A DNA stretch of 64,000 nt from an uncultured bacterium (GTDB taxonomy: Bacteria > Omnitrophota > Omnitrophia > Omnitrophales > Abzuiibacteriaceae). The DNA lies in NCBI GenBank assembly GCA_964387845.1, contig CAYLXA010000001.1, positions 192,001 through 256,000 of the forward strand, given 5' to 3'. The notes below the pieces were generated by a model. The model was not told where the DNA came from. It was given only the letters and a program-made list of their open reading frames with translations, and made no database searches. Made by a program: the position numbers and the translations under genes. Below are positions 15,147 through 58,629 of this stretch, one piece after another; the stretch's first letter is position 1; each line of letters opens with the position of its first letter.

Positions 15147-15280
15147 TAAAACTCCTTATCAAATTGCGGCTCTTTTAACCGATATATAGTATCAAAATGA
15201 TTGTTTAAATCAAAATTCATATTTATACTCTTATCGTTTCTCAGTTTATAAAATCGGCTAACTAGAAAAGAACAACCTTT

Positions 15281-37084: not shown

Positions 37085-37510
37085 TTAGGAGGTCTTGCGC
37101 CAGATATGTTTTATCGCTTCAAGTCGCCCCGAACACTCGTCGCGGACTAATTGAAAGGACAACTGATTGCCCCGAAGTTCCGGTATGTAGACACCATCGC
37201 GGCCGCATTCGGGAATAATCAATCCGCCTTTGTCATTAAAAATCATTTGCCCATTGACGAGCTGGTAATAGCCCAAAATGTCCGGATTCTTGTCGCCCTC
37301 TGAATCAATTTTAAACTCACGGCTCCCTAAAAACTCGACGGTTTTATAAGCACCGGGTCCGCCGTTCACTTTCCAGGTACCAATGAGCGATTCGGGCGTA
37401 ACGCTTTGGATAGAGGGCTCTTTTTGACAACTCGAGAAGAGCATTACCGGCAGTAATCCTAGAACGATAAAAATGAGGGCGGATGATCGTTTGCGGCTCA
37501 TTGGCGTCAT
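37085..37510 (-). CDS. Hypothetical lipoprotein
   Basis: Signal peptide with lipobox LFSSC; 141 aa; start lies 10 nt from the att fragment. Confidence 0.5.
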   Translation of the reverse strand: MTPMSRKRSSALIFIVLGLLPVMLFSSCQKEPSIQSVTPESLIGTWKVNGGPGAYKTVEFLGSREFKIDSEGDKNPDILGYYQLVNGQMIFNDKGGLIIPECGRDGVYIPELRGNQLSFQLVRDECSGRLEAIKHIWRKTS

Positions 37511-37647: not shown

Positions 37648-38856
37648 CTAGTTCTTACAATTGTTTCTTATTTGTGCTGGTTTTGTTAGCACCATGTTAG
37701 CACGGCTTCCAAAAACTTCTTCATCCAATCTCTTCCCTACACCTTCATAAACAACCGGTAGCAAGTGTCCATATCGGTCAAGTGTTGTCTGAATAGAAGC
37801 ATGCCCTAATTGCGACTGAATAAGCTTAATATTTTCCCCCTGTGAAATCAAGAGGGTCGTGTAAGTATGTCTAAGGTCGTGAAACCGCACCCTTCTTAAT
37901 CCAGCCTTTTTGAGAGCACTAGAAAAATCCCGTTTCACCAAATTATCGGGATCCAGCGGATCGCCGTTTACATTGCAAAATATCAGATCGTGAAGTTTGG
38001 GAGGGAACAACTCACGGTATAAATTCAGTCCTTTCTCTAGAACTTTCGACATAACGATTGTTCTTATAGACCTTCTTGATTTTGGTGTAATAAATTTCCA
38101 ACGGTTACAATTCGTTTCTTTAATTTCGCGCCAACAGCGCCAATATAAACTCCTTCTCACGAAAATTATCTTCCGATTCCAGTCGATGTCTTTCCACTGG
38201 AGACCAAGCAACTCCCCTCTTCTCATCCCCGTCAGCACAGCTGTTAAAATGATGGTTCTTAGAGGTTCATCAGAGTTCTTTAAGAGAAGTCTGATATCTT
38301 GCGGTGTAAGAAAATCCATTTCTCTTTGCTCTTCTCGAATTCTGTCAATATCTGCCGCTGGATTTTCAAAGATATATTTCCATTTTCGAGCATGATTAAA
38401 CATGGTTTTTAAAAGGGACAGGTGGTGATTTACCGTCTTGGCGCTTCTTTTATCGTTTAACTCTGAAATGAATTTCTGAATATCATGCGGACGGATACCT
38501 AAAATAGCTCGGTCTCCCAACGCCGGAACAATGGTTGAATTAATCATTGACTCATAATTTCGGAATGTTGAGTCTTTAATAGAAACTCGAGCATAACTGT
38601 CTAGCCATTTCTTTGAAAATTCGGAAAACAAAATCTTGGGTGGCGCAAAGAAAGTTCCTTTATTAACGGATGAGAGTATTTCACTCAGCCTAGCCTCTGC
38701 GTCCTTTTTCTTCGGGCCAATGCGTTCCCACTTTTGCAAACGGCCTGACCTGAATATGATATAGTAGGCTGCTGATTGATGGCTGCATTTGCCGACACCG
38801 TCAGTCGCGTTTTTCCTGCATTTTCCACACCGCCATACGATACTACCTCTTGCCAT
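37648..38856 (-). CDS. int: Tyrosine-type site-specific integrase
   Basis: C-terminal catalytic box VRFHDLRHTYTTLLISQG...LGHASIQTTLDRYGHL (R..H-R-H..Y). Start taken at MARGSIVW; the track start at 38877 is further upstream. Confidence 0.9.
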   Translation of the reverse strand: MARGSIVWRCGKCRKNATDGVGKCSHQSAAYYIIFRSGRLQKWERIGPKKKDAEARLSEILSSVNKGTFFAPPKILFSEFSKKWLDSYARVSIKDSTFRNYESMINSTIVPALGDRAILGIRPHDIQKFISELNDKRSAKTVNHHLSLLKTMFNHARKWKYIFENPAADIDRIREEQREMDFLTPQDIRLLLKNSDEPLRTIILTAVLTGMRRGELLGLQWKDIDWNRKIIFVRRSLYWRCWREIKETNCNRWKFITPKSRRSIRTIVMSKVLEKGLNLYRELFPPKLHDLIFCNVNGDPLDPDNLVKRDFSSALKKAGLRRVRFHDLRHTYTTLLISQGENIKLIQSQLGHASIQTTLDRYGHLLPVVYEGVGKRLDEEVFGSRANMVLTKPAQIRNNCKN

Positions 38857-38907: not shown

Positions 38908-39117
38908 TCAACGCTTTCTTACAGGACGGCCGGCTTTTCTCCGTGTTTGAAGGTAATATCTGATGGAAGGCTCTTCTATAAGCCAGATTTTCGCGGTGTT
39001 CGTTATTTGCGCTTCCCTGCCCCTGATTAATCGCTTTCGAAGTAGGCGACGCAGATAACCCGGTGTCAATTTGTACTTCTTTGATGCTTCGAGTGTCGTT
39101 AGCATGACGTTTGCCAA
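38908..39117 (-). CDS. Small HTH DNA-binding protein (excisionase/MerR-like HTH_17)
   Basis: LEASKKYKLTPGYLRRLLRKRLIRG HTH; basic C-terminal tail; 69 aa. Preferred over the overlapping 99-aa ORF in another frame. Confidence 0.5.
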   Translation of the reverse strand: MANVMLTTLEASKKYKLTPGYLRRLLRKRLIRGREAQITNTAKIWLIEEPSIRYYLQTRRKAGRPVRKR

Positions 39118-39131: not shown

Positions 39132-39329
39132 TTATGATACATTATTTCTGCTCGTTTGGAAGAACCTTATTACCTCATCCTGATTGAAGCGAACGTACTT
39201 TCCCATCTTGATATGCGGAATTGCCTTTTGGCCCAAGCGTGTACGCTGATAAATCCACGTTTTAGGAACTCGCAATACTTTTGAAAGTTCACTAACTGTG
39301 ACCAAATTCTCAGACTGATTTCGTATCAT
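39132..39329 (-). CDS. AlpA-like phage transcriptional regulator/excisionase HTH protein
   Basis: LVTVSELSKVLRVPKTWIYQRTRLGQKAIPHIKMGKYVRFNQDEV is the AlpA-family pattern; 65 aa. Confidence 0.6.
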   Translation of the reverse strand: MIRNQSENLVTVSELSKVLRVPKTWIYQRTRLGQKAIPHIKMGKYVRFNQDEVIRFFQTSRNNVS

Positions 39330-40076
39330 TTAGGATTGCCCCGGCAAACGCGCATTTAACTCGCTATATGTCTGCATATCACCGATATCCTTCCAAATGC
39401 CTTCAATGCGCATTGCCACAGTCGGAACCATTCTATAAAGCCATGTAATGAAATCGCCGATCCTGTCGGGCTCATGCTTGTAGATTTTTAGATACTTATA
39501 AATCATGAAAGGAATTTCTTTCGGCAACAAGTAGACTCCAGCGCTCACTAAAGTCGATTTTGGCGCGCGGGGCTTTTCATCAAAACTTGTAATAATATGG
39601 TCTTCGTTCATTTCAATGACGCCGTACTTCTTGGCTTGTTCAATATTCTTAATGTCATAGCAAGCCAACACCGGTTTTGGCAGATGATGAAGCGCCTGCA
39701 GGATGAAATGATTCAGGGGGTAATCAAAATAATTGTCACTCGCCAAGACCAAATACTCCGAACCTCTCACTCGGGAGTCGCAGACTGCATAATAAAGGTC
39801 TAAAACAGCGCCGTTTCTTTCGTCATTGGAATTTATCCCATTATTCAATATATGAATTGGAAACACGTATTTTTGAAATGACTTCCAATACACAAATTGC
39901 TCATAAAACCGGTTGTTCGTCACAATCAAAACAGAATCTGGTTTAGTCTTGGCGACATTTTCCATCAAATGCTCCAACAGGTATTTACCACCAATATCAA
40001 GCAGCGCTTTAGGCTTACCGAGAGTTAATGGATAAAGCCTTGTCCCAAATCCTCCCGCGAGAATGATCGTGTTCAA
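39330..40076 (-). CDS. Sugar-1-phosphate nucleotidyltransferase (NDP-sugar pyrophosphorylase)
   Basis: ILAGGFGTRLYPLTLGKPKALL matches the LAGGxGTRLxPLT motif of G1P nucleotidyltransferases; 248 aa. Confidence 0.75.
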   Translation of the reverse strand: MNTIILAGGFGTRLYPLTLGKPKALLDIGGKYLLEHLMENVAKTKPDSVLIVTNNRFYEQFVYWKSFQKYVFPIHILNNGINSNDERNGAVLDLYYAVCDSRVRGSEYLVLASDNYFDYPLNHFILQALHHLPKPVLACYDIKNIEQAKKYGVIEMNEDHIITSFDEKPRAPKSTLVSAGVYLLPKEIPFMIYKYLKIYKHEPDRIGDFITWLYRMVPTVAMRIEGIWKDIGDMQTYSELNARLPGQS

Positions 40077-41023
40077 TTCCGCACCTCTACATTCGGAATT
40101 TTCAGCACAAAGTCTGATTTGATTTGAACAAATCCGCGTAAACCCGGCACAAGACCCATCGGCGGATTGGTAAGCCGGACAAGAATTCGTGAGACATATT
40201 TTGTCCGGTAGATTTTCACGATTGTTTCTTCAACCTTAGCGTCTTTTTCGGAGATTTCGCCGTCGAAATTCCCCCGCACTGAATTAAACGTTACTCTAGC
40301 CCTGTCACCTACTTTTACATGGTTCAACTTCTCTTCTGTGATAAATGCCTCAAAATAGAACTCCTTGGGATTGAACAAAATACCAAGTTTTTCTCCTTGT
40401 TTGAAATAGCTCCCGATCCTCGGCTCAAGTTCACCTAGAAATATCCCGTCAAACGGCGCTTTAATTAGGAGCGATTCTTTGCGAAGTTGAAGCAGGTTTA
40501 AATACAGTGTTGATTGTTCAACGGCCTTAGCTTTCGCATTAAGTTTATCCTTAGCGGTATTTGCTTTGAATTCTTCATTATCAAGGTCAAGTTTTGAAAT
40601 AACTCCGTTTTCATACAAGACTCGCGCACTTTCTACGCGTTGACCCGCCAAGGCACTTTCCTTCTCCATTAGTTTTAACTCGTTTTCTTCAATTTCCTTC
40701 TTTTGAAGCAAATTCACAATTTCCAATTCAAGGTCTGGATTTTCGAATTCAAAAAGGATGTCATTGATATGGACCTCCTGCGCATTTCGAATATAGGCCT
40801 TCTTCAAAACACCTTCAGTCATGAGCTGAATATCGAGTTCCTGAGCGGATTTAGCCTTTCCTTCAATTGGGGACAGCATGGCGGGAACAATCTGAAATGC
40901 GAAATGCGCTGATAAAAGCAAGGCGAAAACCATTAATATTATTTTTATTTTTTTAAAAAGGTTCACCTTCTTTAATGGTTTATTTTTTTCTGATTCATCC
41001 AAAAGATTAGGTTCTTGTGTCAT
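40073..41023 (-). CDS. HlyD-family membrane-fusion/periplasmic adaptor protein
   Basis: N-terminal TM, lipoyl-like hairpin, coiled coil, and the LIKAPFDGIF signature. The ATG at 41023 sits behind an AAGGAT RBS; the track start at 41152 is upstream inside the GT2 gene. Confidence 0.65.
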   Translation of the reverse strand: MTQEPNLLDESEKNKPLKKVNLFKKIKIILMVFALLLSAHFAFQIVPAMLSPIEGKAKSAQELDIQLMTEGVLKKAYIRNAQEVHINDILFEFENPDLELEIVNLLQKKEIEENELKLMEKESALAGQRVESARVLYENGVISKLDLDNEEFKANTAKDKLNAKAKAVEQSTLYLNLLQLRKESLLIKAPFDGIFLGELEPRIGSYFKQGEKLGILFNPKEFYFEAFITEEKLNHVKVGDRARVTFNSVRGNFDGEISEKDAKVEETIVKIYRTKYVSRILVRLTNPPMGLVPGLRGFVQIKSDFVLKIPNVEVRN

Positions 41024-42570
41024 ATAGTATTTATCCTTTTTCTGTGCATAGTTTTTGCTGAGTAATAAACAAGCGGAATAGAGAACAAAAGTGATGTGAA
41101 AATGGGGACTGCTGCCATATGGGGAAACGGTGTTCCTTGTGCTAGGTACCAAATACCCGTCAGTCCAATCACGGTCCCGGGCAACAACGCATCAATAGTT
41201 TCTGTCCACGTGATTTGCTCAAACGGATTTTTCTTCATGGGCTGCCAAATAAGCTTTTTAAGGGGGAGCGTCAGTATGTCAAATGCGGTGTAAACAAAAT
41301 TGCCCGCATAGATGAGCGTTGCAACAGTAATCTCATAGAGGAAGCGCTTAATATCATCAAATGTACGGATAAGGACTGCCTTGTGAAAGTAATTCACGAA
41401 AAGACTAAAGATCAAGATTCCGCAAAGCATCTCATTGGCCGGTTGCCCCAGGCATACGGTATTAACTTTAAATGAAATCAATTCACCGAATAGATAACTT
41501 TGCGATAAGAGGCCCAAGAGAAGCCAAAAGAGAAAAACCGGCTGCATGACGTAGCAGTAAATACCGTAAAAAGTCAAAAAACGGATAATAGGGCTGATGG
41601 ACTTCCTATATATAAGCGGAATCCCCTGCAAAGTGCCCTGCGCCCACCTAGATTCCCTGCGTCTTGATTCCAAATAATTAGAAGGCGTTTCATCATATGT
41701 CGTCACATCTGAAATAAACGCCACCCTTAATCCCAACTCATCGAGCAAGGCGGTGTCCCAGTTGTCATGTGAGAGCAGTCCTTTTGGCAGTTGAATTCTC
41801 TTAAACTGCTTTGCTCGTACGAGATGCTGATGGCCGAAAGAGATGGACTTCCTAAAGAGCGAAAAAAGAGTCGTGAAGTAAAGTCTCTGGCTTGATTCCG
41901 ACGCCAATCCTTCAAATTTGGCATAGTAAGTCTTAGCGTGCGCGGTTTTAATCAGCGTTTGAAATATGGCGATGTCCTCATTCTCCGGGTGTTGAGCCTT
42001 CCTCAGTAACTTGAGTACCGTTCTTGGAGGCACCATTGAATCGGCATCGCAGACATACAAATATTCATACACCGGATGACTGGATAGAAATTCGCTTAAA
42101 TTGCCTTGTTTCCGCTCAAAAGGTTCAGGCCGCCTTCTGTAAAACACTTTACGCCCAAGCGTTGCTTCGAGTTTTACTTGAAGTTGAAATTCTGATGGTT
42201 CATAGGCCGCGTCTGAATCACTCAGTATCCAAAAATCAACCCCGGGAAGCTGATTGTTCCTAAATGAATAAAGCATTCTTTCAAAGAGGCCGTCTTTCTC
42301 ATTTCGAATAAAATAGCAAAGCGCCGTTTTCGGAAAACGATTCACATACACTTCTTTCAGATGATGAGGCGGCGCAAACAAAAACATCAAAGCTAGGAGA
42401 AAAAGATAGATGACGTTAAGGAACAGGAAACCGAATCCGGCGATCCATCCGATTAAAATCAGACTCGACTGATATGCCGTAATCTGGTCCAAGACTAAAA
42501 ATACCGCGAGAGCATCCAGCCCGGCCAGCAACGCGATAAACCAATATTCCCGCAACCGCTTTTGTGTCAT
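41020..42570 (-). CDS. Polytopic family-2 glycosyltransferase, OpgH/MdoH-like processive beta-glycan synthase
   Basis: DSD and CDADS (DxD) motifs, RRRESRWAQG (Q/RxxRW processivity motif), and TM bundles at both ends; 516 aa. Confidence 0.7.
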   Translation of the reverse strand: MTQKRLREYWFIALLAGLDALAVFLVLDQITAYQSSLILIGWIAGFGFLFLNVIYLFLLALMFLFAPPHHLKEVYVNRFPKTALCYFIRNEKDGLFERMLYSFRNNQLPGVDFWILSDSDAAYEPSEFQLQVKLEATLGRKVFYRRRPEPFERKQGNLSEFLSSHPVYEYLYVCDADSMVPPRTVLKLLRKAQHPENEDIAIFQTLIKTAHAKTYYAKFEGLASESSQRLYFTTLFSLFRKSISFGHQHLVRAKQFKRIQLPKGLLSHDNWDTALLDELGLRVAFISDVTTYDETPSNYLESRRRESRWAQGTLQGIPLIYRKSISPIIRFLTFYGIYCYVMQPVFLFWLLLGLLSQSYLFGELISFKVNTVCLGQPANEMLCGILIFSLFVNYFHKAVLIRTFDDIKRFLYEITVATLIYAGNFVYTAFDILTLPLKKLIWQPMKKNPFEQITWTETIDALLPGTVIGLTGIWYLAQGTPFPHMAAVPIFTSLLFSIPLVYYSAKTMHRKRINTI

Positions 42571-43814
42571 GAAAGCATACCTCGCTTGAGCGCTTCCAGT
42601 TTCGCCTCGAGAATGCGGAAATTCGCAACACCTTGAATGAAATAAATCCGCGACTTTAAATAATCCTGATAAGCTTCAAAAACCTGAAGACGAGAGGCTT
42701 CGTTAACAATCATTTTCGTTTTTTCATTCTCATAGACCTCTTTCTTTTCCCGTTCAGCGGCTTTGTCTGCCTGAATCTTCTTCCTCGCAACTTCTAATTG
42801 AACCGACATGGCCTTGATCTGCCGTTCAAACTGTTTTATCTCAATCTCACCCTGCAGTTCCGCTTCCTCAACTTCCAGTCTTTTAGCTTGCACGAGATCC
42901 CGTGTCCGTCCAAAGTCCCAAATGTTCCACACGCCTTCAACGCCGAATTCGTAACGGTTCTGGTCCAGAAAGGAATCCTTGGCAACCTTGTACCGGTTTA
43001 GAACTGAAATCTGTGGATAAAGCGAAGAGCGCTCCCTCTTTTCTTCCAATCGCTTTTCTTGGGCGCGCAGCTTCACTTCCTGATAAATGGGATTTTCAGA
43101 ATATTGACTCAAGTCCGGTTTGAACCGTTTAAGATCTTGGAGGGGTTCAAGATCAATGCGAAAATCATCGGGCAGTTTCAAGAGATCTCGCAATAGGTCA
43201 ACCCCGTAATCCATCGTTTTCTTATGACTGACGAGCTCATACTGCGCAGATTTGTATAACGCTTCTGCGCGGTAAACTTCACGTTTTGTAATGAGCTCTT
43301 TTTCATGAAGCGCTTTAAAAGAGCGGTAAATCCTCTCTGACTCTTTCAGCCATTCTTGAGCAAGCAGAGTCATTTCCTTTTCCGTTATTGTTTGAATGAA
43401 AAGCGTCCTGACCTCAAACTGAACGCGCTCACGCTCATTTGAAATCTCGAGCTTCACCTGCTCTTTCTTAACAGAATGAATTTGCGCTTCGCTCCGTGCT
43501 TTCCATCCGTCAAATACCGGAAACACGATTTCGTTGGTCCAAAATAAAACGCCGGAATCCTTCTGCGTGACGGCTGCGCCGTAAGCGCTCGTTCTTACAT
43601 AAGGCCAGCAGAACTTCTTGGCATGTTTCAGCAGCGCTTGTTCCTTTTCAAGGCGGATTTGAAGCAGACGGATGCCCTCGTTGTCATTGAGCACCCGTTC
43701 AAAAGCTTCGTCCAACGTTAAGAGCTTTCCCGCTGGAAGGCCTTCTTCCGGAAACGCGGATGCCGCGTTTCCAAGAAGAAGCATGATGAGTAAACCTGCC
43801 CGCAACAATCTCAT
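42567..43814 (-). CDS. TolC-like outer-membrane factor
   Basis: Signal peptide, then two halves of long helical/coiled-coil repeats typical of the outer-membrane-efflux-protein (OEP) family; 415 aa. Confidence 0.55.
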   Translation of the reverse strand: MRLLRAGLLIMLLLGNAASAFPEEGLPAGKLLTLDEAFERVLNDNEGIRLLQIRLEKEQALLKHAKKFCWPYVRTSAYGAAVTQKDSGVLFWTNEIVFPVFDGWKARSEAQIHSVKKEQVKLEISNERERVQFEVRTLFIQTITEKEMTLLAQEWLKESERIYRSFKALHEKELITKREVYRAEALYKSAQYELVSHKKTMDYGVDLLRDLLKLPDDFRIDLEPLQDLKRFKPDLSQYSENPIYQEVKLRAQEKRLEEKRERSSLYPQISVLNRYKVAKDSFLDQNRYEFGVEGVWNIWDFGRTRDLVQAKRLEVEEAELQGEIEIKQFERQIKAMSVQLEVARKKIQADKAAEREKKEVYENEKTKMIVNEASRLQVFEAYQDYLKSRIYFIQGVANFRILEAKLEALKRGMLS

Positions 43815-43819
43815 CCTGT

Positions 43820-44065
43820 TTAGTCCGCCTTCCCGCTGCCCGTCTCGTCCATCAGCCGCTCAATGCCCTGCTTGAATTCGGCCAGCTTCGTCACGGCGAT
43901 AAACAATCCCTTTCCCGTGGCTTCTTTTGAGCCGTCTTCATGTATGTGATAGACCTGAATGTCCGCATAGGGCTTTCCCTTGTAATCCTTCACCGCAAAC
44001 TGCACTTCTTCGTATTTTGATTTTTCGAAGCTGTGCACCTTTCTCTTGTCGTAATATCTGCTCAT
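43820..44065 (-). CDS. PC4/YdbC-like ssDNA-binding protein (paralog 1)
   Basis: 81 aa; ...QVYHIHEDGSKEATGKGLFIAVTKLAEFKQGIERL parallels the 55142-55369 paralog (..RVFFADAVTGEARPTKKGVTINCALIGELIEGLRRA). Confidence 0.45.
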   Translation of the reverse strand: MSRYYDKRKVHSFEKSKYEEVQFAVKDYKGKPYADIQVYHIHEDGSKEATGKGLFIAVTKLAEFKQGIERLMDETGSGKAD

Positions 44066-44083: not shown

Positions 44084-44980
44084 TTAAATCCCGTCCAGCA
44101 AAATCACCTGAATCGGGGTAAACCCGTCAACCGTGACGGATGTCTCGACTTTTACGTTCCGTAAATCCTGCCGGGCCTGGCCCGTTAAATTCTGGGCAAG
44201 GTTCATTCTGAGATTATCTTCCAATGAATAGGGGTCTCTGCTCACACCGCCTGCAAACAGACTCACCCCCGCAAGCGCTGTTTCGCCCACCGCTTTCAGA
44301 ATCCTCATGTCCGTCTGCTTGCTTACGCGCCCTTTGATGCCCGCTGAACCGTCCTCTGAAAGGGCAATCGCTCGAATCCGCCTTTCACTGCCGTCAGGCA
44401 TAATCAAAAGTTCAAAACGTACGTTGATGCGGTTGAGACTTTTTAAGACACCCGCTTCACCTAGAAACTTGGAATCCTTGGGGATAACAACTTTTCCTTC
44501 TGCTTCAAAATCTTTTGTAATAACCGCGGTTACAGGCGCCGCGACATTGAATGAAAAGATCGTATCCTTCACGAAGGCGGGAATCTTCGTGCCGGATGGA
44601 ATATTAAATTTCTGAAGCGTGGTTGATTGCGTGCCGTAAACGCTTTGGCTTCTTTTTTCCTCTTCCTTAAAAAGAAAGACATCGATATCCGTGTTGTAGT
44701 TTCTTGCTTTCCTGACCGGCCTTGCGCCGGAGAGTGCGGATGGTTTACCGTTTGATGCCTTAGGCGGCCCCGCAAAATCCGATTGGCCAAATATCTTCCT
44801 GCCGGCAGTCTCAGAATTCTTCGTGGGTTCCCCCTTATCCGTGCGCCTTTTCTGCTTGGCGCTTTGAGAATAGAAGAGAACAAGAATCATGAGCACAAGC
44901 AGTAAGACCAGCAAGACCCTGTGCTTCTTCGCCGCGCGCAACAATGTTAAGAGAGATGTCGATTTTCTAAATTCAGTCAT
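44084..44980 (-). CDS. trbI: T4SS VirB10/TrbI-family protein
   Basis: N-terminal TM, Pro/Ser-rich linker, and C-terminal IPSGTKIPAFV...VTAVITKDFEAEGKVVIPKDSKFLGEAG...RINVRFELLIMPDGSERRIRAIALSEDGSAGIKGRV matching the TrbI beta-barrel pattern. Confidence 0.65.
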   Translation of the reverse strand: MTEFRKSTSLLTLLRAAKKHRVLLVLLLVLMILVLFYSQSAKQKRRTDKGEPTKNSETAGRKIFGQSDFAGPPKASNGKPSALSGARPVRKARNYNTDIDVFLFKEEEKRSQSVYGTQSTTLQKFNIPSGTKIPAFVKDTIFSFNVAAPVTAVITKDFEAEGKVVIPKDSKFLGEAGVLKSLNRINVRFELLIMPDGSERRIRAIALSEDGSAGIKGRVSKQTDMRILKAVGETALAGVSLFAGGVSRDPYSLEDNLRMNLAQNLTGQARQDLRNVKVETSVTVDGFTPIQVILLDGI

Positions 44981-44990: not shown

Positions 44991-46007
44991 TCAATCTAGC
45001 CAGCGAAAGCCTTCGATCCGTAAGTTGCGCTCTCCCTCATCTTCAAACAGGAGGACTACCGGCTTTTCGCCTTTCTTCAAGGATCGTCTGTCAAATTGAA
45101 TGATGCCGTACTGATAAGAATCCGGAGCTACGCTTTTTTCACTCTTAAGATCAGACGGCAGTTCGACCAAGCCTTCTTTGACTTTGCGCAGACCCAAAGA
45201 TTTTTTCTCATAAGTCTGAAGCCCTACGACCATTTCCCTGATTTTGTAATCTGTTTTCGATAAATTACGAATACTGAACCTAAGATACGCTTTCTCGCCA
45301 ATCGTGGAGATGGTTAATAGGTTGAGCCTCACACCGCCCTCCTCTGCGTAATCTTTCAGCTGAACCGCTTCATTTCCTTTTTTGATTTCCTCTTTCAATT
45401 TTTCTTCGGACAAGTCCTCGGCTTTCGCATCAAGCGCTTCTTCCTTCTGTTTAAACTTTTCTTTTATAGCCGTTTCGGTTTCGTTAACCCGCTTTTCAAA
45501 TGCGTTGTCTACGATCATGTCCTCATCCGGATACCTGAAATCAATTACGAAATCAGCTGTTTCGGGTTTCCCGACCGTAACATCAAAAGTAAGCCGCGAG
45601 GATTGCGTCATGATAGTCAGATTTGTCCGCGCATCAGGATCATCCGTGACCGGTTTTATAATGACTTCCTTCTCAAAAACGCCGACTTTGAAGAGTTCCT
45701 GATCTCCGATAAACACCTTGAGCGCGGGCTCTGGCAGATCGATTGTGGAAGCATAACCGAGAGCTGTTTGGAGTTTGTAAACCACGTTCGGCCTCATGCT
45801 TGCGGAGTAAATCCTCTTCTCGCTAACGGAATTCCTATTGATCCGTTTTCTTTCGGCTACAGCGTCCTGCGGCACCTGGTCTGGGTTGGCGACGCTAAGC
45901 TCTGCTTGCTCTACGCTATTTAAATCCTTCCCAAATTCCTCTGCGCAATAGCCATCGTGCGCAAGTGCAATTAAAATTACTGCGATTAAAGTAAAGCATT
46001 TCATCAT
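44991..46007 (-). CDS. T4SS VirB9/TrbG-like secreted protein
   Basis: Signal peptide; 338 aa and beta-rich; position between the VirB8-like and VirB10-like genes. Confidence 0.5.
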   Translation of the reverse strand: MMKCFTLIAVILIALAHDGYCAEEFGKDLNSVEQAELSVANPDQVPQDAVAERKRINRNSVSEKRIYSASMRPNVVYKLQTALGYASTIDLPEPALKVFIGDQELFKVGVFEKEVIIKPVTDDPDARTNLTIMTQSSRLTFDVTVGKPETADFVIDFRYPDEDMIVDNAFEKRVNETETAIKEKFKQKEEALDAKAEDLSEEKLKEEIKKGNEAVQLKDYAEEGGVRLNLLTISTIGEKAYLRFSIRNLSKTDYKIREMVVGLQTYEKKSLGLRKVKEGLVELPSDLKSEKSVAPDSYQYGIIQFDRRSLKKGEKPVVLLFEDEGERNLRIEGFRWLD

Positions 46008-46663
46008 GATTTCTGTTCATCCTTTCTTGACAAATCATTGAGAATCAACTCTTTGTAACCATCCACAAGAAGACCTTCGGGCGTGTTTGAACTTCGGGAG
46101 ACTTTCTTTAAAACGATATCTGCGCGGAATAAGATTTCCTCCCGGAAGGACGGTTCGTCATATCTCGAGATTCGCCTGACACCAAGGAGCGAAACAACCG
46201 CGGCATCGGGTGCATCACGCTCGATTTTCGTTTCTTTAAATTCAAGTTGGGTGTCAATTTGAGCGGTCTTCAGTTTTTCAACCAAGCCCGAATCAATAAG
46301 TGATTTTCTAGCCTCATGTTGAAGCCTCGTGGTCATTAAATTGAAGGCTTCCGCGAGGTCTTTTGTGACTGTGTACGAATTAAAGCCCGTATATCTGAGC
46401 GTAAACCGTTTTGATAGGGCAATGATTTCATGGTGCGTGGGCTCGTTATGTTTTGGCAGGTCTCGAATTACTTGTGCGCCCTCAACTTCTGAAACTCTGA
46501 TGACTACCGGAGGTTTCATGCCTAATATGACGGAACCCGCAAAGGCAAGCAGCACGATGAAGGCAAGTATAAGGTTGGCTTTCCTTAAGAATTGAATTTC
46601 CATTTCGAGGTCGCCAAAAGCTTCAAAGTAGCGGCGTTTGACCTTTGCAATGATTTCGCTCAT
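46004..46663 (-). CDS. T4SS VirB8/TrbF-like bitopic protein
   Basis: Cytoplasmic N-terminus, single TM (ILAFIVLLAFAGSVILG), and a ~150-aa periplasmic domain; synteny. Confidence 0.5.
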   Translation of the reverse strand: MSEIIAKVKRRYFEAFGDLEMEIQFLRKANLILAFIVLLAFAGSVILGMKPPVVIRVSEVEGAQVIRDLPKHNEPTHHEIIALSKRFTLRYTGFNSYTVTKDLAEAFNLMTTRLQHEARKSLIDSGLVEKLKTAQIDTQLEFKETKIERDAPDAAVVSLLGVRRISRYDEPSFREEILFRADIVLKKVSRSSNTPEGLLVDGYKELILNDLSRKDEQKS

Positions 46664-47505
46664 GAATTTCCTCCTGAGTAATTCGTCTGCCCTCTGCGGC
46701 TAGGAGTGAACCGGACAGCCGGAATGTGCCGCACGATTCTTTCCATGATTCTTCCGCCGATGCCGAACACTCGTCCGCCCGCCTGCGTGAAACCTTCTGC
46801 GCCCCGGATCATCATCAAAGAAATCATGGGCACAAAGAAAAGTATGATCAAAATGATGATGACGTTCATCGCAAACAAATCAAGATTGAGCGTTTGGGTA
46901 TTGGTGTAAAACTCGAAGAAATTAAGTTCGAAGAGAATACGGACAAAAAGAGACAACACGACGTTCCAATTCAACACTTCAAAGAGCCAGCGTACCCATA
47001 TCCGTGCCATGCCGGGCTGGAAAATACCGACACCCAAGAAGACAGGCCCTGAGATATAAAGCGCTGAAAGGAAAACGATCCTCACCCATCCAAATCCCCG
47101 AAGAATTGCGTAGGATATGTTGTAAGTTCCCTGCATCATCAAATCGAGAAAAGTCATCTTAAGAAGCGCAAGCATTCCCAGGTCATGATTTTGACGATAA
47201 GCCGTGAAAATCTTCTGTATCTGGTCTTTAAATTCTTCAGCCGGCATGAAGAAATTGGCAAGCAAATCCATTCCTCTTGAAACTTCTTCAAAGAAGGGCG
47301 TATAAATTGAATAAAGGCCGGTGATGAGCAGGACTCGGACGAAAAGTCCCGCGTAGTCGCTCCGCCCCTCCATTCCGTGCAAAAATTCTTTAATCAAGGC
47401 GAGTGTTAGAAACACGAAGATAAAACTGTAGCCGACTTCCCGAACCTCATGATAGAAGGCCGCGAAAATAGTGATGATTTCTTGGGTGGTGGGAAGTGAA
47501 CTCAT
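46660..47505 (-). CDS. T4SS VirB6/TrbL-like polytopic membrane protein
   Basis: 281 aa with at least five TM helices; synteny between the VirB5-like and VirB8-like genes. Confidence 0.5.
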   Translation of the reverse strand: MSSLPTTQEIITIFAAFYHEVREVGYSFIFVFLTLALIKEFLHGMEGRSDYAGLFVRVLLITGLYSIYTPFFEEVSRGMDLLANFFMPAEEFKDQIQKIFTAYRQNHDLGMLALLKMTFLDLMMQGTYNISYAILRGFGWVRIVFLSALYISGPVFLGVGIFQPGMARIWVRWLFEVLNWNVVLSLFVRILFELNFFEFYTNTQTLNLDLFAMNVIIILIILFFVPMISLMMIRGAEGFTQAGGRVFGIGGRIMERIVRHIPAVRFTPSRRGQTNYSGGNS

Positions 47506-48296
47506 CAGCCCGGCCTTCCCAAACTTTCAATACCAAGCTGCATCTCGCGCATATATTTAAGACGCTCCCGCTCGAAGCGCTTTTCATCGCGCGACACTTG
47601 CTCTAATTTGGTTGCTTCAACCTCAAGCAACTTGGCGAATATTTCCTGATTCTCTTGCGTAACGACAATCAATTTTCCGGAGGCATCCGCTGAAAGTCTT
47701 GCCGCCCCTTTTGGACTTGCCGTCTGCGATAATTCTTGAATGGTCTCGCCCGCTTGCTTTGTTTCATCTGAGCGCTTTCTAATTTCATGCGCCATTAAGT
47801 AAGCTTCGCCCACCTGCGATTCATCAAATGTGATATAGGGACGCTCCACAGATTGAGGGTCCATTCCATGAATGGTTTCAATATAGGACTTGATGCCTGA
47901 CGGGTCGCCGTAACCTTCAAGTATGGTCCCCAAATTTCGGATGGCGTCTTGTTCAACGGACGGTTCGAATCCAGCAAGGAATCCATCCCGAAATGTCGAC
48001 TGTGAATCTCTGAAGGCCCGCGCCGCATCCTGGACAAAACTTCTCACGAATTCTTCGATGCCAGCGTTAAAGCGCATCATTTCCTGATACGTGTTTTCAA
48101 GTTCCGTAAGCTGATCGAATAATACGATAATTTCCTGTGCAAACTGATTTTCCATCAAGGAATTGCGAAGTTCATTCAGCGCGGCATTGACAAAATCAAT
48201 CACAGGCAGATCCGCCTTCGCTGTGCCGGGGCAGACGGCTAGGCTTGCTGCTAAGTAAAGCGAGATGACCGTCAACCTTAATTTTGGTGATTTCAT
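47505..48296 (-). CDS. T4SS VirB5/TrbJ-like secreted coiled-coil protein
   Basis: Signal peptide, helical region; 263 aa; synteny after VirB4. Confidence 0.45.
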   Translation of the reverse strand: MKSPKLRLTVISLYLAASLAVCPGTAKADLPVIDFVNAALNELRNSLMENQFAQEIIVLFDQLTELENTYQEMMRFNAGIEEFVRSFVQDAARAFRDSQSTFRDGFLAGFEPSVEQDAIRNLGTILEGYGDPSGIKSYIETIHGMDPQSVERPYITFDESQVGEAYLMAHEIRKRSDETKQAGETIQELSQTASPKGAARLSADASGKLIVVTQENQEIFAKLLEVEATKLEQVSRDEKRFERERLKYMREMQLGIESLGRPG

Positions 48297-50773
48297 ATGG
48301 CAGGAGCCTCCTTACGCCACGTGATTCCTCGCGGATATTTACCCGCGAGTATTCTCAGCCGTTCCAACTCACTCAAACTTGGCTCCATTGCGCGGAGCCT
48401 TTCCTCCTCGATTTGGTCGTTGGGCTCTGTTGTTGCAATCCAGTAGTCAAGGGGCGAGGGCTCAAGCTTAGCCGTGACAGCTTTGTTAAAAAACTTGATG
48501 AAGATTTCGGAGAAAACACCGGGCCTTATTTCCAATTCTTCGCAAGCGCTGACCTCATTCGGATTCAGGTCAAACTTAGACAGCAATTCATGCCCCTTTT
48601 GAAGCTTTAAAATGTATTTCACGTAGGAATTGGAAAGAATGGCGGGTGCCGCCTTTGATTGAAGAAAATCCACAGGGCTTTGGCTGATTGAAAGAACGAG
48701 ACCGTTTGTCTTTCTGGCTGTTCTGTAAAGCTCTTCAATCAGCTTTGAGCCGACATCGTCATTAAAAAAGCGCCATCCTTCGTCAATGACAATGATTTTG
48801 CGGAGCGAAATGTCACCCAGTTTTCTAGCAATGGCGGATCGGATCACAAAAAAAAGAATGGATTGCAGTTCAGGGTGCTGTGAAAGCTTGCCCAAGTCAA
48901 AAACAATGAATCGGTTATCAAAAGTCAGGCTGCTTTGCCGGTTCAAGAGCCTGCCAAAGCGACCTTCGGTCCACATGCTTAAATTCTTTGAGAATTGATA
49001 CGCTTTCCGCTTGTCCTCGTCATCACCCGCCGCATAATTTCGAAGAATCATTTGCACATCGCCCAAAAGAGGTCGGTGTGTATCCTGAATGCTTTCGTAG
49101 ACTTTCAGAATTGATTGTTCAAGAATTCGAAGCTCTGAACTTTTCACTCTCTCCCTCTCAGAGACCATCTTTTCAAGCAGGGTGCTCAGAAAACCTAAAA
49201 GATCGGCGTTCACTTCGCCGGGCTTTGGGAATAATTGACGTTTCTCAGGAAATAGGTTAAGCGCATATTCTTCCGTGCAGTCGATTTGCAAGTAATGACC
49301 GTCAAATAAACGCGCAAGTTTTTTATAACTGCCGCCCATATCGATTACGATAACGTGATTCCGATCTCCTGCGATGAGAAAACTGCTCAGCAAATGATTC
49401 GCAGTGAATGACTTCCCGGAACCCGTGCTCCCAATCATGACTGCATGCTTCGCCGGAAGCGACGGATCAAAAAGATTAAGCGCAAACCCTTCGTCTTCGT
49501 GAGTTTTGAGCAAAATATCGAAGTCATCCGTTCCCTTCCATTCTTCCCCGAGCGGCAATAGATGGCTCAATGCGCCTGTTAAGACAGGAAACACGGATTG
49601 ATTTTGATCGGCCTGCAGGGGTAAATGTGACAGAAACAACGTGTCATGCTCCAAATGATCGAAGATTCCGACTGAGCCGCCCAGTTTCGGGAAAGCTTTC
49701 AAAACAGCTTCCTTCTTACGAGCAAGCGCCGCTTCGTCCTTTGCCTTAATGAGCACAGAAAGCGAGATATCAAAGACGCTTTCGCCTTGCTCGGCCATTT
49801 GATGAAGAAATGATTCGTATTGGGACGCCTTTTGCCTTGCAAAGTGATCCTCTGAAATCCGGAAGAAGGCGTTTGCGTGCGCGAAATTGGCTCTGATTCG
49901 AAGCTTGCCAATTTCTTTGTCCTGGTCTTTCTTCCTAAGAGTAATCATCCATTCTGAATCATCCGGCATAAGGCGATCAAATGACTTAATCATTTTCAAG
50001 CCGACATGGCCGGGCAGCGTCCTTAAATTAGCAGCCGAATGAAAATAACCGTCCATATAAAGCGAATTTCTGTAAATTTTGGGCGGATGAAGCAAGAGCC
50101 GCGACCTCAGCGTTTCAAACTTGGGATTGGTTAATGGATTCTCCTGAAACGCGTCTTCGTATCGGACAATCTGAGATAGTGAAGGATTAAGTTTCCTGTA
50201 GTACTCGCGGATAACGTCCATTGCGGAAAGTCTCTCGACCGTGACACCCAAGGCCTTCAACGCCGTGATGATCAACGACTCAGCTTGAAGCAGATAAGCC
50301 TTGCCTTCTTCATGATTTGAGCGATGAAATGATCTTGACCGCTTCCGTTTTTTCTCAGGGCTTAAATGGCTTAAAAACAAAAAAATTTCCTTTTTTACCA
50401 AACGCGAATTTGTTAGTACATTTACTTTCTCCCGCACGATCACGTTGACCAATGGGTCTTGGCGTGAGGTGTTCGCTTGACACCTCCCGAGCATCTCATC
50501 GTCGCCCCGGCTTGAGCGTTTAACGAATGACAATAAAATCCCTGAGGGCAGCCGATTCAGCAGTTTCTGAAGTTCATGCATGAACGCGACTATTTCGGCG
50601 TCATCATAAAGAAGGTAATCAACACCTGAAACTTTATAGACAAGCGCCATTCGCCCTGAAACCCCGACGGCTAAGCCATCTTCTTCAACAGCCATGAGAT
50701 CAAGTGCCGGGAAAAATGGAACGCGTTGCAGTGAGTCGCTCAATTCTTTAATCGTCAGCAATGTTTCCATCAA
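48293..50773 (-). CDS. T4SS VirB4/TrbE ATPase
   Basis: 826 aa; Walker A MIGSTGSGKSF, Walker B IVIDEGW; CagE/TrbE/VirB4 organisation. Confidence 0.9.
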   Translation of the reverse strand: MMETLLTIKELSDSLQRVPFFPALDLMAVEEDGLAVGVSGRMALVYKVSGVDYLLYDDAEIVAFMHELQKLLNRLPSGILLSFVKRSSRGDDEMLGRCQANTSRQDPLVNVIVREKVNVLTNSRLVKKEIFLFLSHLSPEKKRKRSRSFHRSNHEEGKAYLLQAESLIITALKALGVTVERLSAMDVIREYYRKLNPSLSQIVRYEDAFQENPLTNPKFETLRSRLLLHPPKIYRNSLYMDGYFHSAANLRTLPGHVGLKMIKSFDRLMPDDSEWMITLRKKDQDKEIGKLRIRANFAHANAFFRISEDHFARQKASQYESFLHQMAEQGESVFDISLSVLIKAKDEAALARKKEAVLKAFPKLGGSVGIFDHLEHDTLFLSHLPLQADQNQSVFPVLTGALSHLLPLGEEWKGTDDFDILLKTHEDEGFALNLFDPSLPAKHAVMIGSTGSGKSFTANHLLSSFLIAGDRNHVIVIDMGGSYKKLARLFDGHYLQIDCTEEYALNLFPEKRQLFPKPGEVNADLLGFLSTLLEKMVSERERVKSSELRILEQSILKVYESIQDTHRPLLGDVQMILRNYAAGDDEDKRKAYQFSKNLSMWTEGRFGRLLNRQSSLTFDNRFIVFDLGKLSQHPELQSILFFVIRSAIARKLGDISLRKIIVIDEGWRFFNDDVGSKLIEELYRTARKTNGLVLSISQSPVDFLQSKAAPAILSNSYVKYILKLQKGHELLSKFDLNPNEVSACEELEIRPGVFSEIFIKFFNKAVTAKLEPSPLDYWIATTEPNDQIEEERLRAMEPSLSELERLRILAGKYPRGITWRKEAPAI

Positions 50774-51033
50774 ATTTCCTCCCGTGTCTGTGTGAAATAG
50801 GCGGGCATGAAAAAATAACGAATCAAATTCTTAGTAAACCTGTCTGCCTTATTCCTTTTGTAATATCTGAGAAATAAATAGACCGCGAAGACAAATGAAA
50901 GATTGACCATGAGATTCTTTGAGCCGAGAAAGACCATAAGATAGACCGCTAACAAACCAAGCAAGTCCATCCATTCAAGACCGAAGAATTTGTTTTTTTG
51001 TGTAATCATTGGATACATCGTTATTGGCTTCAT
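50770..51033 (-). CDS. T4SS VirB3/TrbD-like small membrane protein
   Basis: 87 aa with two TM helices; translationally coupled between the VirB2-like and VirB4-like genes. Confidence 0.55.
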   Translation of the reverse strand: MKPITMYPMITQKNKFFGLEWMDLLGLLAVYLMVFLGSKNLMVNLSFVFAVYLFLRYYKRNKADRFTKNLIRYFFMPAYFTQTREEI

Positions 51034-51034: not shown

Positions 51035-51337
51035 CTAAAACCCCGTCACATTCTTTATTAAGTCAAGCACTGCTCGGGCAAGCATAATGAGCGCTCCGCC
51101 CCCTGCTGCCAGGGCACCGCGCCTCATGCCTTGTTCATTTCCAAGCGCCATTGAAATACCAGATACCGCAATTCCGATCACAAGTATTCCAGGACCTACG
51201 CTCTGTATTAGAAAAGTCCCAACAGCATCCAGGAAATAGCCCAACTCTTCTTGATTCTGCGCCTCCGCATACGCAATGCCCGCGTGAAGATAAATAGCCG
51301 TCAGTATCACAAGATATTTCGCAATCATTTTCCGCAT
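51035..51337 (-). CDS. T4SS pilin VirB2/TrbC-like; start taken at the internal ATG (MRKMIAKYL)
   Basis: Long signal peptide ending AYA, then two hydrophobic helices (GILVIGIAVSGISMALG / ALAAGGGALIMLARAV) typical of conjugative pilins. The track start at 51430 is a TTG. Confidence 0.6.
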   Translation of the reverse strand: MRKMIAKYLVILTAIYLHAGIAYAEAQNQEELGYFLDAVGTFLIQSVGPGILVIGIAVSGISMALGNEQGMRRGALAAGGGALIMLARAVLDLIKNVTGF

Positions 51338-51412
51338 ATATTCACCTTGGGGGATAGCGGGGTCAATTTTGACCCCGCCCTTTGGAACAGCCGCATGCGC
51401 TGTAAAAGTCCC

Positions 51413-51456
51413 CTCATAGATGTTGTGCAAAAACGGGCATTTCGTAACAAGAAATT
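51413..51456. promoter_or_regulatory. Conserved ~45-nt element (copy 1), ~75 nt upstream of the pilin gene; candidate promoter/operator
   Basis: ctcatagatgttgtgcaaaaacGGGcatttcgtaacaagAaaatt is about 90% identical to 58630-58674. Confidence 0.5.
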
Positions 51457-51468: not shown

Positions 51469-51837
51469 TTAAAATTTATTTTTCAGTATCTGGATTCCCA
51501 CATATTTCTTGAGTTTGGTCGCAGCCCTGCGTATATGCATCCGTACGATCGCGCTATCTGAAATATTCAACTCTTCTGCTATTTCCAGATTGCTCAATCC
51601 TTGCAATGTTAATCTGACGCACTCACGCTCTCTCTTAGACAGCCCGGCACGACTTATGGCTCGTCTTGCCATTTCTTTCTGTTCATTTTCAATCAGCACC
51701 TCGACCGGCGAGGGCTGAGTGGCCACCTTCTTCAGAATTTCTTGATGCAAATCGGTTTTTGGGTCATTTTCGATCTTCTGAAAATCGACACCGATACGCA
51801 CCGTTCTCTTTGTTTTCCATTGAGTGTTGTTTTCCAT
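51469..51837 (-). CDS. LuxR/GerE-type HTH transcriptional regulator
   Basis: C-terminal LSKRERECVRLTLQGLSNLEIAEELNISDSAIVRMHIRRAATKL; 122 aa. Confidence 0.7.
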   Translation of the reverse strand: MENNTQWKTKRTVRIGVDFQKIENDPKTDLHQEILKKVATQPSPVEVLIENEQKEMARRAISRAGLSKRERECVRLTLQGLSNLEIAEELNISDSAIVRMHIRRAATKLKKYVGIQILKNKF

Positions 51838-53362: not shown

Positions 53363-53410
53363 GGTAAGTCTCCTTAGGTTTAATTGGGATTGAACTACTG
53401 AAGTGATAAA

Positions 53411-57360: not shown

Positions 57361-58088
57361 CCCAAGATGGAGCGTAGAGGAATTCTGGATGCCTTATTCA
57401 TCAGCTCCGCATCTTTCTTTTTCAGTAAGAGCTCATCATAGAGCACAAAGCAAAGCTTATTCTGAGGAACTTCAATGTCCAATAGCCAGCTCTTCACCAT
57501 GTGCCAAGACAGGATATAAATCACCAGGGTGAAATCATTTAGACGGCTGTATTTCGCAAACCTTGTCTCATACCTTTCCCGTTCCCTGAAGGAATTTTCA
57601 AGTTCAATCGCAATTCTCTGCCCGCTTACTTCGATGACCGCGTCAGGAAAAAATTCCCGGTCGTGCTCTTCTTTTCTGACAACCCGTTCGCTCAGCCATT
57701 TAACACCCTTAAAGTCCCGAAACAGGCACCGCAACGTCGCCAACTTGAGCGTATGCTCTATCGTATATTGGTTGATATCCCCGATTTCTCCAAAGCCACG
57801 GTCCAGCCCTTTCTCTTTCAAGACATCTATCCCCTCAGCCGTCAGCAGAAAAAGTCTCACTTTTTCTGATTTCGCCTTCTGGACATCCAAAGTCCTAATA
57901 AATCCTGCATCAACAAGCTTGCTCAAACGCTGCCTTGCAGTTCCTGACCTCACTTCGCTGTCAGGCCAAAATGCCGAGTAAATTTGATTCGCCATCATGT
58001 ACTTTTGTTCATTCAAGTACGTGAATATCTCGATATCACGCTCTGTAATGACGACACGCCGCAATTTATCCAATAAGTTTTCAGCCAC
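57357..58088 (-). CDS. Replication-relaxation family protein (winged-helix N-terminus); candidate non-canonical relaxase/accessory factor
   Basis: N-terminal wHTH ERDIEIFTYLNEQKYMMANQIYSAF...RQRLSKLVDAGFI; 243 aa; translationally coupled to the coupling-protein gene. Confidence 0.4.
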   Translation of the reverse strand: MAENLLDKLRRVVITERDIEIFTYLNEQKYMMANQIYSAFWPDSEVRSGTARQRLSKLVDAGFIRTLDVQKAKSEKVRLFLLTAEGIDVLKEKGLDRGFGEIGDINQYTIEHTLKLATLRCLFRDFKGVKWLSERVVRKEEHDREFFPDAVIEVSGQRIAIELENSFRERERYETRFAKYSRLNDFTLVIYILSWHMVKSWLLDIEVPQNKLCFVLYDELLLKKKDAELMNKASRIPLRSILG

Positions 58089-58549: not shown

Positions 58550-58629
58550 TGTGGAACTCCTTATGTGGAAGCTTTATCGCTTCAAGTCTTTCATCCAAGT
58601 TTATGCTTGGCGGTTTCTGTTTATTTTTC

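Follow-up and report, generated by a model that had tools for sequence, protein, structure and literature searches.

Among the closest described counterparts of the genes reported here are glucan secretion systems in which a synthase, an adaptor and TolC are proposed to act together. In Sinorhizobium meliloti, a mixed-linkage beta-glucan is made by the BgsA/BgsB/TolC system; disruption of tolC abolishes glucan production, and a tripartite complex has been proposed (PMC13438883). A synthase-HlyD-like-TolC route, XcsA/XcsB/TolC, has likewise been proposed for the extracellular cellulose of cyanobacteria (Maeda et al. 2018, as described in PMC12430437). Here we analyze a 64,000-nucleotide window of DNA from an uncultured bacterium of the phylum Omnitrophota (assembly GCA_964387845.1, contig CAYLXA010000001.1, positions 192,001 to 256,000 of the forward strand; coordinates below are those of the window). 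At 39330-43814, in line behind the type IV secretion system (T4SS) genes of an apparent integrative and conjugative element (ICE), four genes encode a TolC-family outer membrane factor (OMF), a family 2 glycosyltransferase (GT2), a membrane fusion protein (MFP, or periplasmic adaptor) and a nucleotidyltransferase predicted to make a nucleoside diphosphate (NDP) sugar.

Like BgsA/BgsB/TolC, this module combines a membrane GT2, an adjoining HlyD-type adaptor and a TolC-type channel, with no ABC or Wzx/Wzy step (PMC13438883). The three are encoded side by side, and the element carries no other inner-membrane transporter. On balance we lean towards the view, held with modest rather than strong confidence, that the four genes constitute a self-contained, envelope-spanning system for polysaccharide synthesis and secretion that is co-inherited with the T4SS and has a role in the element's own transfer.

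A compact gene module behind trbI

The four open reading frames (ORFs) of the module were confirmed on the minus strand from the ORF list and the sequence, in the transcribed order OMF, GT2, MFP, nucleotidyltransferase. Their Pfam and NCBIfam matches agree with the identities given in a preliminary description of the locus (TolC-like, GT2, HlyD-like, NDP-sugar enzyme), and the 4-nt stop/start overlaps that it placed between them can be read directly from the sequence, as ATGA at 42570-42567 (OMF/GT2), ATGA at 41023-41020 (GT2/MFP) and TTGA at 40076-40073 (MFP/nucleotidyltransferase), the last providing a TTG start. The short upstream gaps that it reported are also as described: 18 nt, including an AAGGAG ribosome-binding site, lie between the trbI stop (44084) and the ATG (44065) of a PC4-like gene, and 5 nt between the stop of that gene (43820) and the OMF ATG (43814). 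A further junction, absent from that account, is found at the distal end, where the nucleotidyltransferase stop is followed with 0 nt by the ATG of xis (39329). In family alignments the N-terminus of the MFP is kept in 42 orthologues and that of the nucleotidyltransferase in 29, and this conservation supports ATG 41023 and TTG 40076 as their true starts.

The T4SS genes from 51430 to 44084 are equally tightly arranged, with overlaps of 1-4 nt or gaps of no more than 10 nt, and the packing of these genes and the module makes a single transcription unit of ~12 kb plausible. Among 34 related loci, the distance from OMF to GT2 is exactly -4 nt in 22 and at most 5 nt in 31; because the 4-nt overlap recurs in this way, the tight OMF/GT2 junction is not due to chance.

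A predicted processive synthase of the OpgH/Cgs type

The GT2 gene (41020-42570, minus strand) encodes a 516-aa protein with a Pfam Glyco_trans_2_3 match (4e-11). Nine NCBIfam MdoH models also match it, the best with E = 4.8e-45, and all fall under their equivalog cutoffs; we rejected its assignment as a true OpgH orthologue. Aligned with an OpgH encoded beside MdoG (P0098), it shows 27% identity (E = 9e-32) and shares the motifs ILSDSD, DADS, LSHD and RxxRWxQGxxQ. The catalytic residues are invariant in 22 homologues of 35-73% identity, namely D118 (in LSDSD), D175 and D177 (D175-A-D177), H268-D269 (S267-H268-D269) and R305xxR308W309, and these motif contexts align with those of OpgH. The preliminary description was thus right to call the enzyme a processive GT2, but the motif that it cited as QxxRW is RESRW, an OpgH-type RxxRW in which R305, R308 and W309 are the invariant positions.

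Hydrophobic segments flank the glycosyltransferase (GT) domain on its N- and C-terminal sides, so that the protein displays both hallmarks of processive membrane GT2s, GT-A catalytic motifs and a GT domain fused to a transmembrane (TM) bundle. An AlphaFold2 (AF2) model built with 22 homologues (predicted local distance difference test score, pLDDT, 89.6; predicted template modelling score, pTM, 0.89) was compared with solved structures using Foldseek, and matched over its full length cyclic beta-1,2-glucan synthase (Cgs; query TM-score, TMq, 0.72-0.75), BcsA (0.63-0.67) and hyaluronan synthase (0.57). By sequence, the sole PDB match is again Cgs (8rf0, 8rf9). These full-length fold matches argue that GT2 is a processive synthase embedded in the membrane and, as modelled, contains a channel for translocation. 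No PilZ, c-di-GMP or other regulatory domain is present in it. Neither MdoG (opgG) nor OpgD was found in the element, and MdoG was found in none of the T4SS-linked loci; it adjoins GT2 only in the distant homologues P0098 and Rudaea L054.

Outer membrane factor, adaptor and nucleotidyltransferase

The OMF (42567-43814, minus strand) carries a signal peptide and matches Pfam OEP over two stretches (6.8e-30, 104.7 bits against a cutoff of 22), while its match to TIGR01844 lies under the cutoff. Its AF2 model has a twofold layout of one beta-hairpin and two long helices, as in a TolC protomer, and Foldseek aligned it with TolC, CusC and OprM at TMq 0.78-0.80 (E about 1e-16). The two OEP repeats, the protomer fold and the signal peptide together place the protein in the TolC family.

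The MFP (40073-41023, minus strand) is assigned to the HlyD/EmrA type on its Pfam scores (HlyD_D23, 1.8e-8, 34.4 bits against a cutoff of 30; HlyD_3, 9e-7, 30 bits against 22.2), on its match to EmrA 4tko (1.3e-5), the closest solved relative, and on a single N-terminal hydrophobic TM anchor at residues 28-46. It also matches TIGR01730 RND_mfp (1e-17) with a score of 64, below the cutoff of 94.9. Residues 1-15 (40979-41023; MTQEPNLLDESEK), which are cytoplasmic, are among the best-conserved MFP stretches in the 42 orthologues. It is possible that this N-terminus serves as a contact site for the synthase.

The nucleotidyltransferase (39330-40076, minus strand), a sugar-1-phosphate enzyme that would supply NDP-hexose, matches PF00483 NTP_transferase (2.6e-38, 132.5 bits against a cutoff of 21.2), and its GxGTRL N-terminus (GGFGTRLYPLT) is invariant in 29 orthologues. 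This score and motif place it in the PF00483 family, in which it reaches no substrate-specific equivalog cutoff; its closest solved relatives are a mannose-1-phosphate (Man-1-P) guanylyltransferase (6.7e-16) and a glucose-1-phosphate (G1P) thymidylyltransferase (8e-14).

Co-divergence of the module and the T4SS

About 100 close relatives of GT2 were found, and nearly all of the named ones belong to Candidatus Omnitrophota. The first three genomic contexts (49-74% GT2 identity) each show the order trbC...virB4...CagX-trbI-small ORF-OEP-GT2-MFP-NTP_transferase; the recombinase varies among them, with either none nearby or a serine recombinase in place of a tyrosine integrase, and the module is constant. 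A GT2-anchored scan of species-representative genomes gave 57 loci, for which the counts that follow use non-redundant loci with GT2 of at least 44% identity. TrbI lies upstream of GT2 in 23/23 loci with enough upstream DNA, and OMF is immediately upstream of GT2 in 26/27, the exception having a frameshifted GT2. MFP is downstream of GT2 in all 31 T4SS-linked loci with sequence available, and the NTP-transferase is present in 26 of 29. When metagenomes were instead scanned with TrbI as the anchor, 35 of 43 loci with at least 2.5 kb of downstream sequence carried OMF and GT2 and 8 did not, which shows that the module is not an obligatory core component of the T4SS.

Divergence of the module was compared with that of the T4SS using pairwise identities after de-replication at 97%, with 2000 permutations. 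Identity of GT2 correlates with that of VirB4 (r = 0.98, n = 32) and of TrbI (r = 0.93, n = 44), in both cases with 0/2000 permutations as high. These correlations are as tight as that between VirB4 and TrbI themselves, and the relationship holds down to roughly 30-40% TrbI identity. Taken with the recurrent OMF/GT2 spacing, this co-divergence indicates that the module has been inherited with the T4SS and not swapped in and out. The label "cargo" in the preliminary description is therefore misleading: across the ICE family the module is conserved and co-diverges with the T4SS, and recent variable cargo is a description that we reject. Nor is the module indispensable, as a minority of elements lack it and carry other genes in its slot.

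Some Omnitrophota metagenome-assembled genomes (MAGs) have four or five separate contigs bearing a T4SS-plus-module element, among them JAZDJU (L021, L030, L032 and L037) and CAISGE (L017, L024, L031 and L055), which suggests several co-resident copies of the element or mixtures of strains.

Relatives outside conjugative elements and the probable polymer

GT2 homologues at 29-42% identity are mostly found without T4SS linkage. Stand-alone loci in Omnitrophota and Planctomycetia consist of GT2 and MFP, either alone or together with OMF, and lack a pump. In most stand-alone loci GT2 and MFP are neighbors, and another locus without T4SS linkage (L063) is flanked by enolase, DivIC and LeuRS. In a cultured gammaproteobacterium, Rudaea sp. 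3F27F6, genes for an MFP-like protein, a GT2 and an NTP_transferase lie beside MdoG. A neighbour-joining tree rooted on true OpgH, whose deep nodes are unreliable, places the stand-alone GT2s at the base and groups the T4SS-linked ones together. Most simply, an ancestral ICE would have captured a chromosomal synthase-adaptor(-OMF) cassette on one or a very small number of occasions. A tblastn search of 72,556 plasmids of cultured bacteria with GT2 returned no member of the family, only canonical mdoH at less than 30% identity. The sole unannotated plasmid match, from Leptospira, follows a gene labelled 'glucan biosynthesis protein', and from this neighbour we read it as ordinary opgGH.

The relatives also bear on the product. 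The characterized enzymes nearest to GT2 by sequence and fold are OpgH and Cgs. In Planctomycetia cassettes (L039-L041, about 12380-16071), the OMF is a 1189-aa fusion of a TolC-like part, a GH144-type domain and TPR repeats; the extra domain (Pfam "Glycoamylase") matches the endo-beta-1,2-glucanase 5gzh (1.4e-30) and related PDB entries, and the fusion would thus combine an outer-membrane channel and a glycan-processing domain in one protein. Three indirect indications, the kinship of GT2 with OpgH and Cgs, the Planctomycetia fusion and the Rudaea homologue beside MdoG, make a linear beta-1,2-glucan the likeliest product.

The T4SS operon and the surrounding element

Every gene from 37648 to 58549 lies on the minus strand. 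In transcribed order these encode a 135-aa ORF, a Replic_Relax protein, a T4 coupling protein (T4CP), an Amidoligase_2/GATase pair and a LuxR-type regulator; the pilin, VirB3-position protein, VirB4, VirB5-position protein, VirB6-like and VirB8-like proteins, VirB9 and VirB10; and then the PC4-like protein, the four-gene module, two small helix-turn-helix (HTH) proteins and a tyrosine integrase. The preliminary description had put the module in line in the T4SS operon of an ICE, and the integrase, xis, T4CP and Replic_Relax genes agree with this. As ICE features, the integrase, excisionase, T4SS and T4CP are clear, the relaxase is represented only by the Replic_Relax match (5e-7), and the attachment (att) sites by one 16-bp repeat.

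The T4SS genes begin with a TrbC/VirB2-type pilin (51035-51430), whose orthologues match PF04956 TrbC, and a TrbD/VirB3-position protein assigned by position (50770-51033), followed by the TrbE/VirB4 ATPase (48293-50773; P-loop_TraG 3e-32, TraC_F_IV). A TrbJ/VirB5-position protein (47505-48296), a TrbL/VirB6-like protein (46660-47505) and a TrbF/VirB8-like protein (46004-46663) are assigned mainly by position: the three genes of 46004-48296 have no Pfam match in the window, their order is the same in all related loci, and an orthologue in locus L065 has a weak VirB8 match. VirB9, listed as missing in the preliminary description, is present: the TrbG/VirB9-like ORF at 44991-46007 matches CagX (1.1e-10) and TIGR02781 VirB9 (1.9e-13). 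TrbI/VirB10 (44084-44980; PF03743, 2.1e-14) completes the series, and its profile aligns to Xanthomonas VirB10 6gyb as far as the start of a stretch that we interpret as the first outer-membrane antenna helix. No VirB11-sized ORF is present in the element, and no VirB7-like lipoprotein was identified. A LuxR/GerE-type regulator (51469-51837; GerE 2.4e-11) is encoded immediately before the T4SS genes, and many related loci keep it upstream of trbC. An Amidoligase_2 and class-II glutamine amidotransferase gene pair (52325-54685, minus strand) lies further upstream; GATase homologues are found upstream of the T4SS in L001, L067, L073, L108 and L109, and an amidoligase also in L067. The T4CP (55537-57360; T4SS-DNA_transf 3e-10, TraG-D_C) and the Replic_Relax protein (57357-58088) are encoded beyond this pair.

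The 81-aa product of the gene between trbI and OMF (43820-44065) is a small protein with the single-stranded DNA-binding fold of the PC4/Sub1 family. A profile of 14 orthologues matches human PC4 4usg (4.7e-8) and BPSL1147 (3e-6), and 9 of the 14 match Pfam PC4, from which we take it to be a genuine PC4/Sub1-fold protein. It could bind the transferred single strand. The gene occupies the same position in most related T4SS operons and is absent from the L049/L060/L065 clade.

Downstream of the module lie the excisionase gene xis (39132-39329; HTH_17 1.4e-7, TIGR01764), a second small basic ORF of 69 aa with no Pfam match (38908-39117), possibly another recombination directionality factor that binds DNA, and the tyrosine integrase (37648-38856; Phage_integrase 7.9e-28). 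An exact 16-bp direct repeat, TTTATCGCTTCAAGTC, marks candidate attL (37110-37125) and attR (58573-58588) sites and would delimit an element of ~21.5 kb; it cannot be extended past 16 bp, and its naive chance expectation is about 0.002. The candidate attL copy lies within the 3' end of a 141-aa lipoprotein-like ORF (37085-37510). To the left of the integrase is ordinary chromosome, with BacA, HemN-like, MsrA and MetH genes. Just beyond the right end, a low-GC stretch (37-39%) encodes a 1304-aa DUF4062 and STAND-NTPase protein (59005-62919, minus strand) and is probably a defence island. The module makes up about one fifth of this compact element and is essentially its sole non-core content.

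Discussion

The preliminary description likened the module to synthase-dependent secretion of an exopolysaccharide or glucan, and this likeness was borne out. So was the lack of an ABC transporter: the element encodes no ABC, RND, MFS or other transporter. We propose that the nucleotidyltransferase makes an NDP-hexose, which the OpgH-like GT2 would polymerize at the inner membrane while threading the chain through its own TM channel. The HlyD-type adaptor would then take the chain and bridge the periplasm, and a TolC-like trimer would release the polymer outside the cell, with the synthase acting where ordinary tripartite exporters have an ABC, RND or MFS pump. We infer that GT2, MFP and OMF form a physical complex. 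The arrangement probably originated when a chromosomal GT2-adaptor(-OMF) cassette was recruited, in one or at most a few events, to the distal end of a Trb-type T4SS operon. The module would probably be expressed only when the mating apparatus is, since its synthase lacks a regulatory domain and its genes overlap or nearly abut behind trbI. Given this position without regulation of its own, its inheritance together with the T4SS and how compact the element is, the module most likely serves transfer of the element, through cell-cell contact or mating-pair stabilization; the extracellular glucan would promote or stabilize contact between donor and recipient. From the comparative evidence, the module looks like the element's own equipment and not casual cargo, an anciently recruited and co-inherited accessory of the ICE family.

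A secreted glycan could, alternatively, benefit the host cell and make carriage of the ICE advantageous without aiding transfer. It might form a biofilm matrix, an adhesin by which these ultra-small and possibly epibiotic cells attach to partner cells, or a surface layer hiding the receptors used by phage or in conjugation (surface exclusion). Between trbI and the recombinase, where the module lies, relatives without it hold typical cargo (SRAP, LexA-like or HipA genes); it has been lost from a minority of otherwise intact elements, and conjugative elements with biofilm exopolysaccharide (EPS) loci are known, pMMCAT being an example (10.1101/2024.04.29.590671). Ordinary cargo, however, turns over quickly, whereas the module co-diverges with VirB4 (r = 0.98) and accounts for essentially all that is non-core in a 21.5-kb element; its genes, moreover, overlap or nearly abut the mating-pair genes and bring no regulator or c-di-GMP domain of their own. 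We consider benefit to the host the main rival to our reading, though the less likely of the two.

A more remote alternative divides the module in two, with the adaptor and OMF serving as an efflux or type I duct for an unlinked pump, and GT2 and the nucleotidyltransferase separately making a periplasmic glucan of the osmoregulated periplasmic glucan (OPG) type. OpgH itself delivers glucan to the periplasm only, housekeeping TolC proteins are promiscuous, and the best named matches of the MFP are drug-efflux adaptors. A division of labor of this kind is nevertheless difficult to reconcile with the 4-nt OMF/GT2 overlap in 22/34 loci, with the adjacency of GT2 and MFP in 31/31 T4SS-linked loci and most stand-alone ones, or with the Planctomycetia fusion, in which a domain active on beta-1,2-glucan connects the OMF with the glycan; no pump gene occurs in any inspected locus, and the ICE has no OpgG or OpgD. 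We regard it as improbable. Finally, the proposal in the preliminary description that the HlyD/TolC-like pair is the outer-membrane conduit of the T4SS and replaces VirB7/VirB9 is rejected as very improbable indeed: no VirB7-like lipoprotein or VirB11 was identified in the element and the pair is encoded directly after trbI, but VirB9/CagX and TrbI/VirB10 homologues are present, TrbI aligns to 6gyb into what we take to be the first antenna helix, locus L117 has a complete and apparently intact T4SS, T4CP and relaxase-like gene with no OMF or MFP within 20 kb, and homologous GT2-MFP-OMF cassettes exist without any T4SS.

Several observations weigh against a glycan secretion system devoted to transfer. 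The module is dispensable, as a minority of related elements lack it. In L094 and L096, the OMF, GT2 and MFP are gone and the PC4-like gene and NTP-transferase directly follow trbI, an arrangement also seen on the shorter contigs L101 and L110; L113 retains only an MFP. In L117 the slot holds SRAP and a LexA-like protein and in L115 HipA, with the same T4SS as in module-bearing loci; three further loci without OMF and GT2 have a very distant TrbI. The surveyed loci were fully de-replicated only in the co-divergence test, and long retention could equally reflect benefit to the host. With respect to the synthase, no MdoH model (PRK05454 equivalogs) matches it at better than 153.9 bits, where the cutoff is 419. 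Nor is the sugar certain, because the relatives of the nucleotidyltransferase include Man-1-P guanylyltransferases, an ambiguity among solved structures that leaves the sugar unfixed by this enzyme, and because the genes around the Rudaea cassette, a GHMP-kinase/SIS gene among them, resemble a heptose-type pathway. Direct passage of glucan through TolC is unproven both for BgsAB-TolC (PMC13438883) and for XcsAB-TolC (PMC12430437). As to transcription, scans of 37-52.5 kb for sigma-70 promoters and intrinsic terminators gave counts at or below those of shuffled controls and are uninformative; they placed neither within the trbI-OMF junctions, a consensus-based result in a phylum, Omnitrophota, whose promoters are unknown. 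The outcome is consistent with one long transcription unit, without proving co-transcription.

If the module does function in transfer as we propose, it would represent a new class of accessory function for T4SS operons, a secreted glycan encoded by the element and passed down together with the mating apparatus through deep divergence, in a little-known phylum of ultra-small cells. More tentatively, and with doubts that outweigh our expectation, we suggest that the polysaccharide is a mating adhesin or matrix, co-expressed with the T4SS, that stabilizes mating pairs in place of the protein adhesins or specialized pili of known systems; this would make the element the first conjugation system with a dedicated exopolysaccharide secretion apparatus, and the module the first natural operon to encode a whole synthase-adaptor-TolC glycan exporter. 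The searchable literature yielded no description of the module or of a T4SS-linked OMF/GT2 pair. The parts all come from known families, and conjugative elements carrying EPS loci have been described before; what is new is that an OpgH-like synthase belongs to a tripartite exporter encoded entirely within one operon, and that this unit became part of a T4SS operon long ago and has been conserved there. The synthase-adaptor-TolC model gains strong comparative genomic support from a dedicated OMF gene that overlaps the synthase gene and from the fusion, in relatives, of the OMF to a beta-1,2-glucan-active domain. The compact four-gene cassette defined here (~4.5 kb) could be used for heterologous expression.

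Among the systems to which the module can be compared, OpgH (MdoH)/OpgG is the closest characterized family in sequence, and it builds a beta-1,2-glucan backbone from UDP-glucose. At 516 aa, GT2 is shorter than the 716-aa OpgH P0098, lacks its N- and C-terminal extensions and has no opgG partner; unlike OpgH it is accompanied by an MFP and an OMF, and these partners imply that the polymer is carried out past the periplasm. In structure, the best match of the GT2 model is Cgs/ChvB/NdvB (PDB 8rf0, 8rf9), in which chains of ~2,800 residues include cyclization and phosphorylase domains, export is by the ABC transporter ChvA/NdvA, and the genes are not encoded within a T4SS operon. In Agrobacterium, chvA and chvB are needed for attachment before T4SS-mediated transfer of T-DNA, a role that can be seen as a loose functional parallel to that suggested for the module.

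In its architecture the module resembles BgsA/BgsB/TolC, although BgsA is a BcsA-like protein with a C-terminal c-di-GMP-binding domain, TolC is an unlinked housekeeping protein, and the genes are chromosomal with no tie to conjugation (PMC13438883). Here, in contrast, the synthase is OpgH/Cgs-like, the OMF and NDP-sugar enzyme are encoded in the operon, and the whole unit lies within a T4SS operon. For XcsA/XcsB/TolC, the synthase and adaptor often share one operon and TolC is unlinked (PMC12430437), and the system has no tie to a mobile element. The conjugative element itself follows Trb-type (Ti-plasmid-like; mating-pair-formation type T, MPF-T) T4SS ICEs in the common order trbC-D-E-J-L-F-G-I and in its T4CP and integrase/excisionase. 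It differs from them in that TrbB/VirB11 was not found, a Replic_Relax protein takes the place of a classical relaxase, and the PC4-like gene and four-gene module follow trbI as conserved parts of the operon. The nearest precedent on a conjugative element is the Bacteroidales plasmid pMMCAT, which also encodes an extracellular polysaccharide affecting cell-cell association (10.1101/2024.04.29.590671). Its locus spans 24 kb, with nine glycosyltransferase genes and its own phase-variable promoters, apart from the tra genes (10.1101/2024.04.29.590671), and appears to be of the Wzx/Wzy type. The Omnitrophota module, by comparison, is a single-synthase tripartite system situated inside the T4SS operon and co-diverging with the T4SS.

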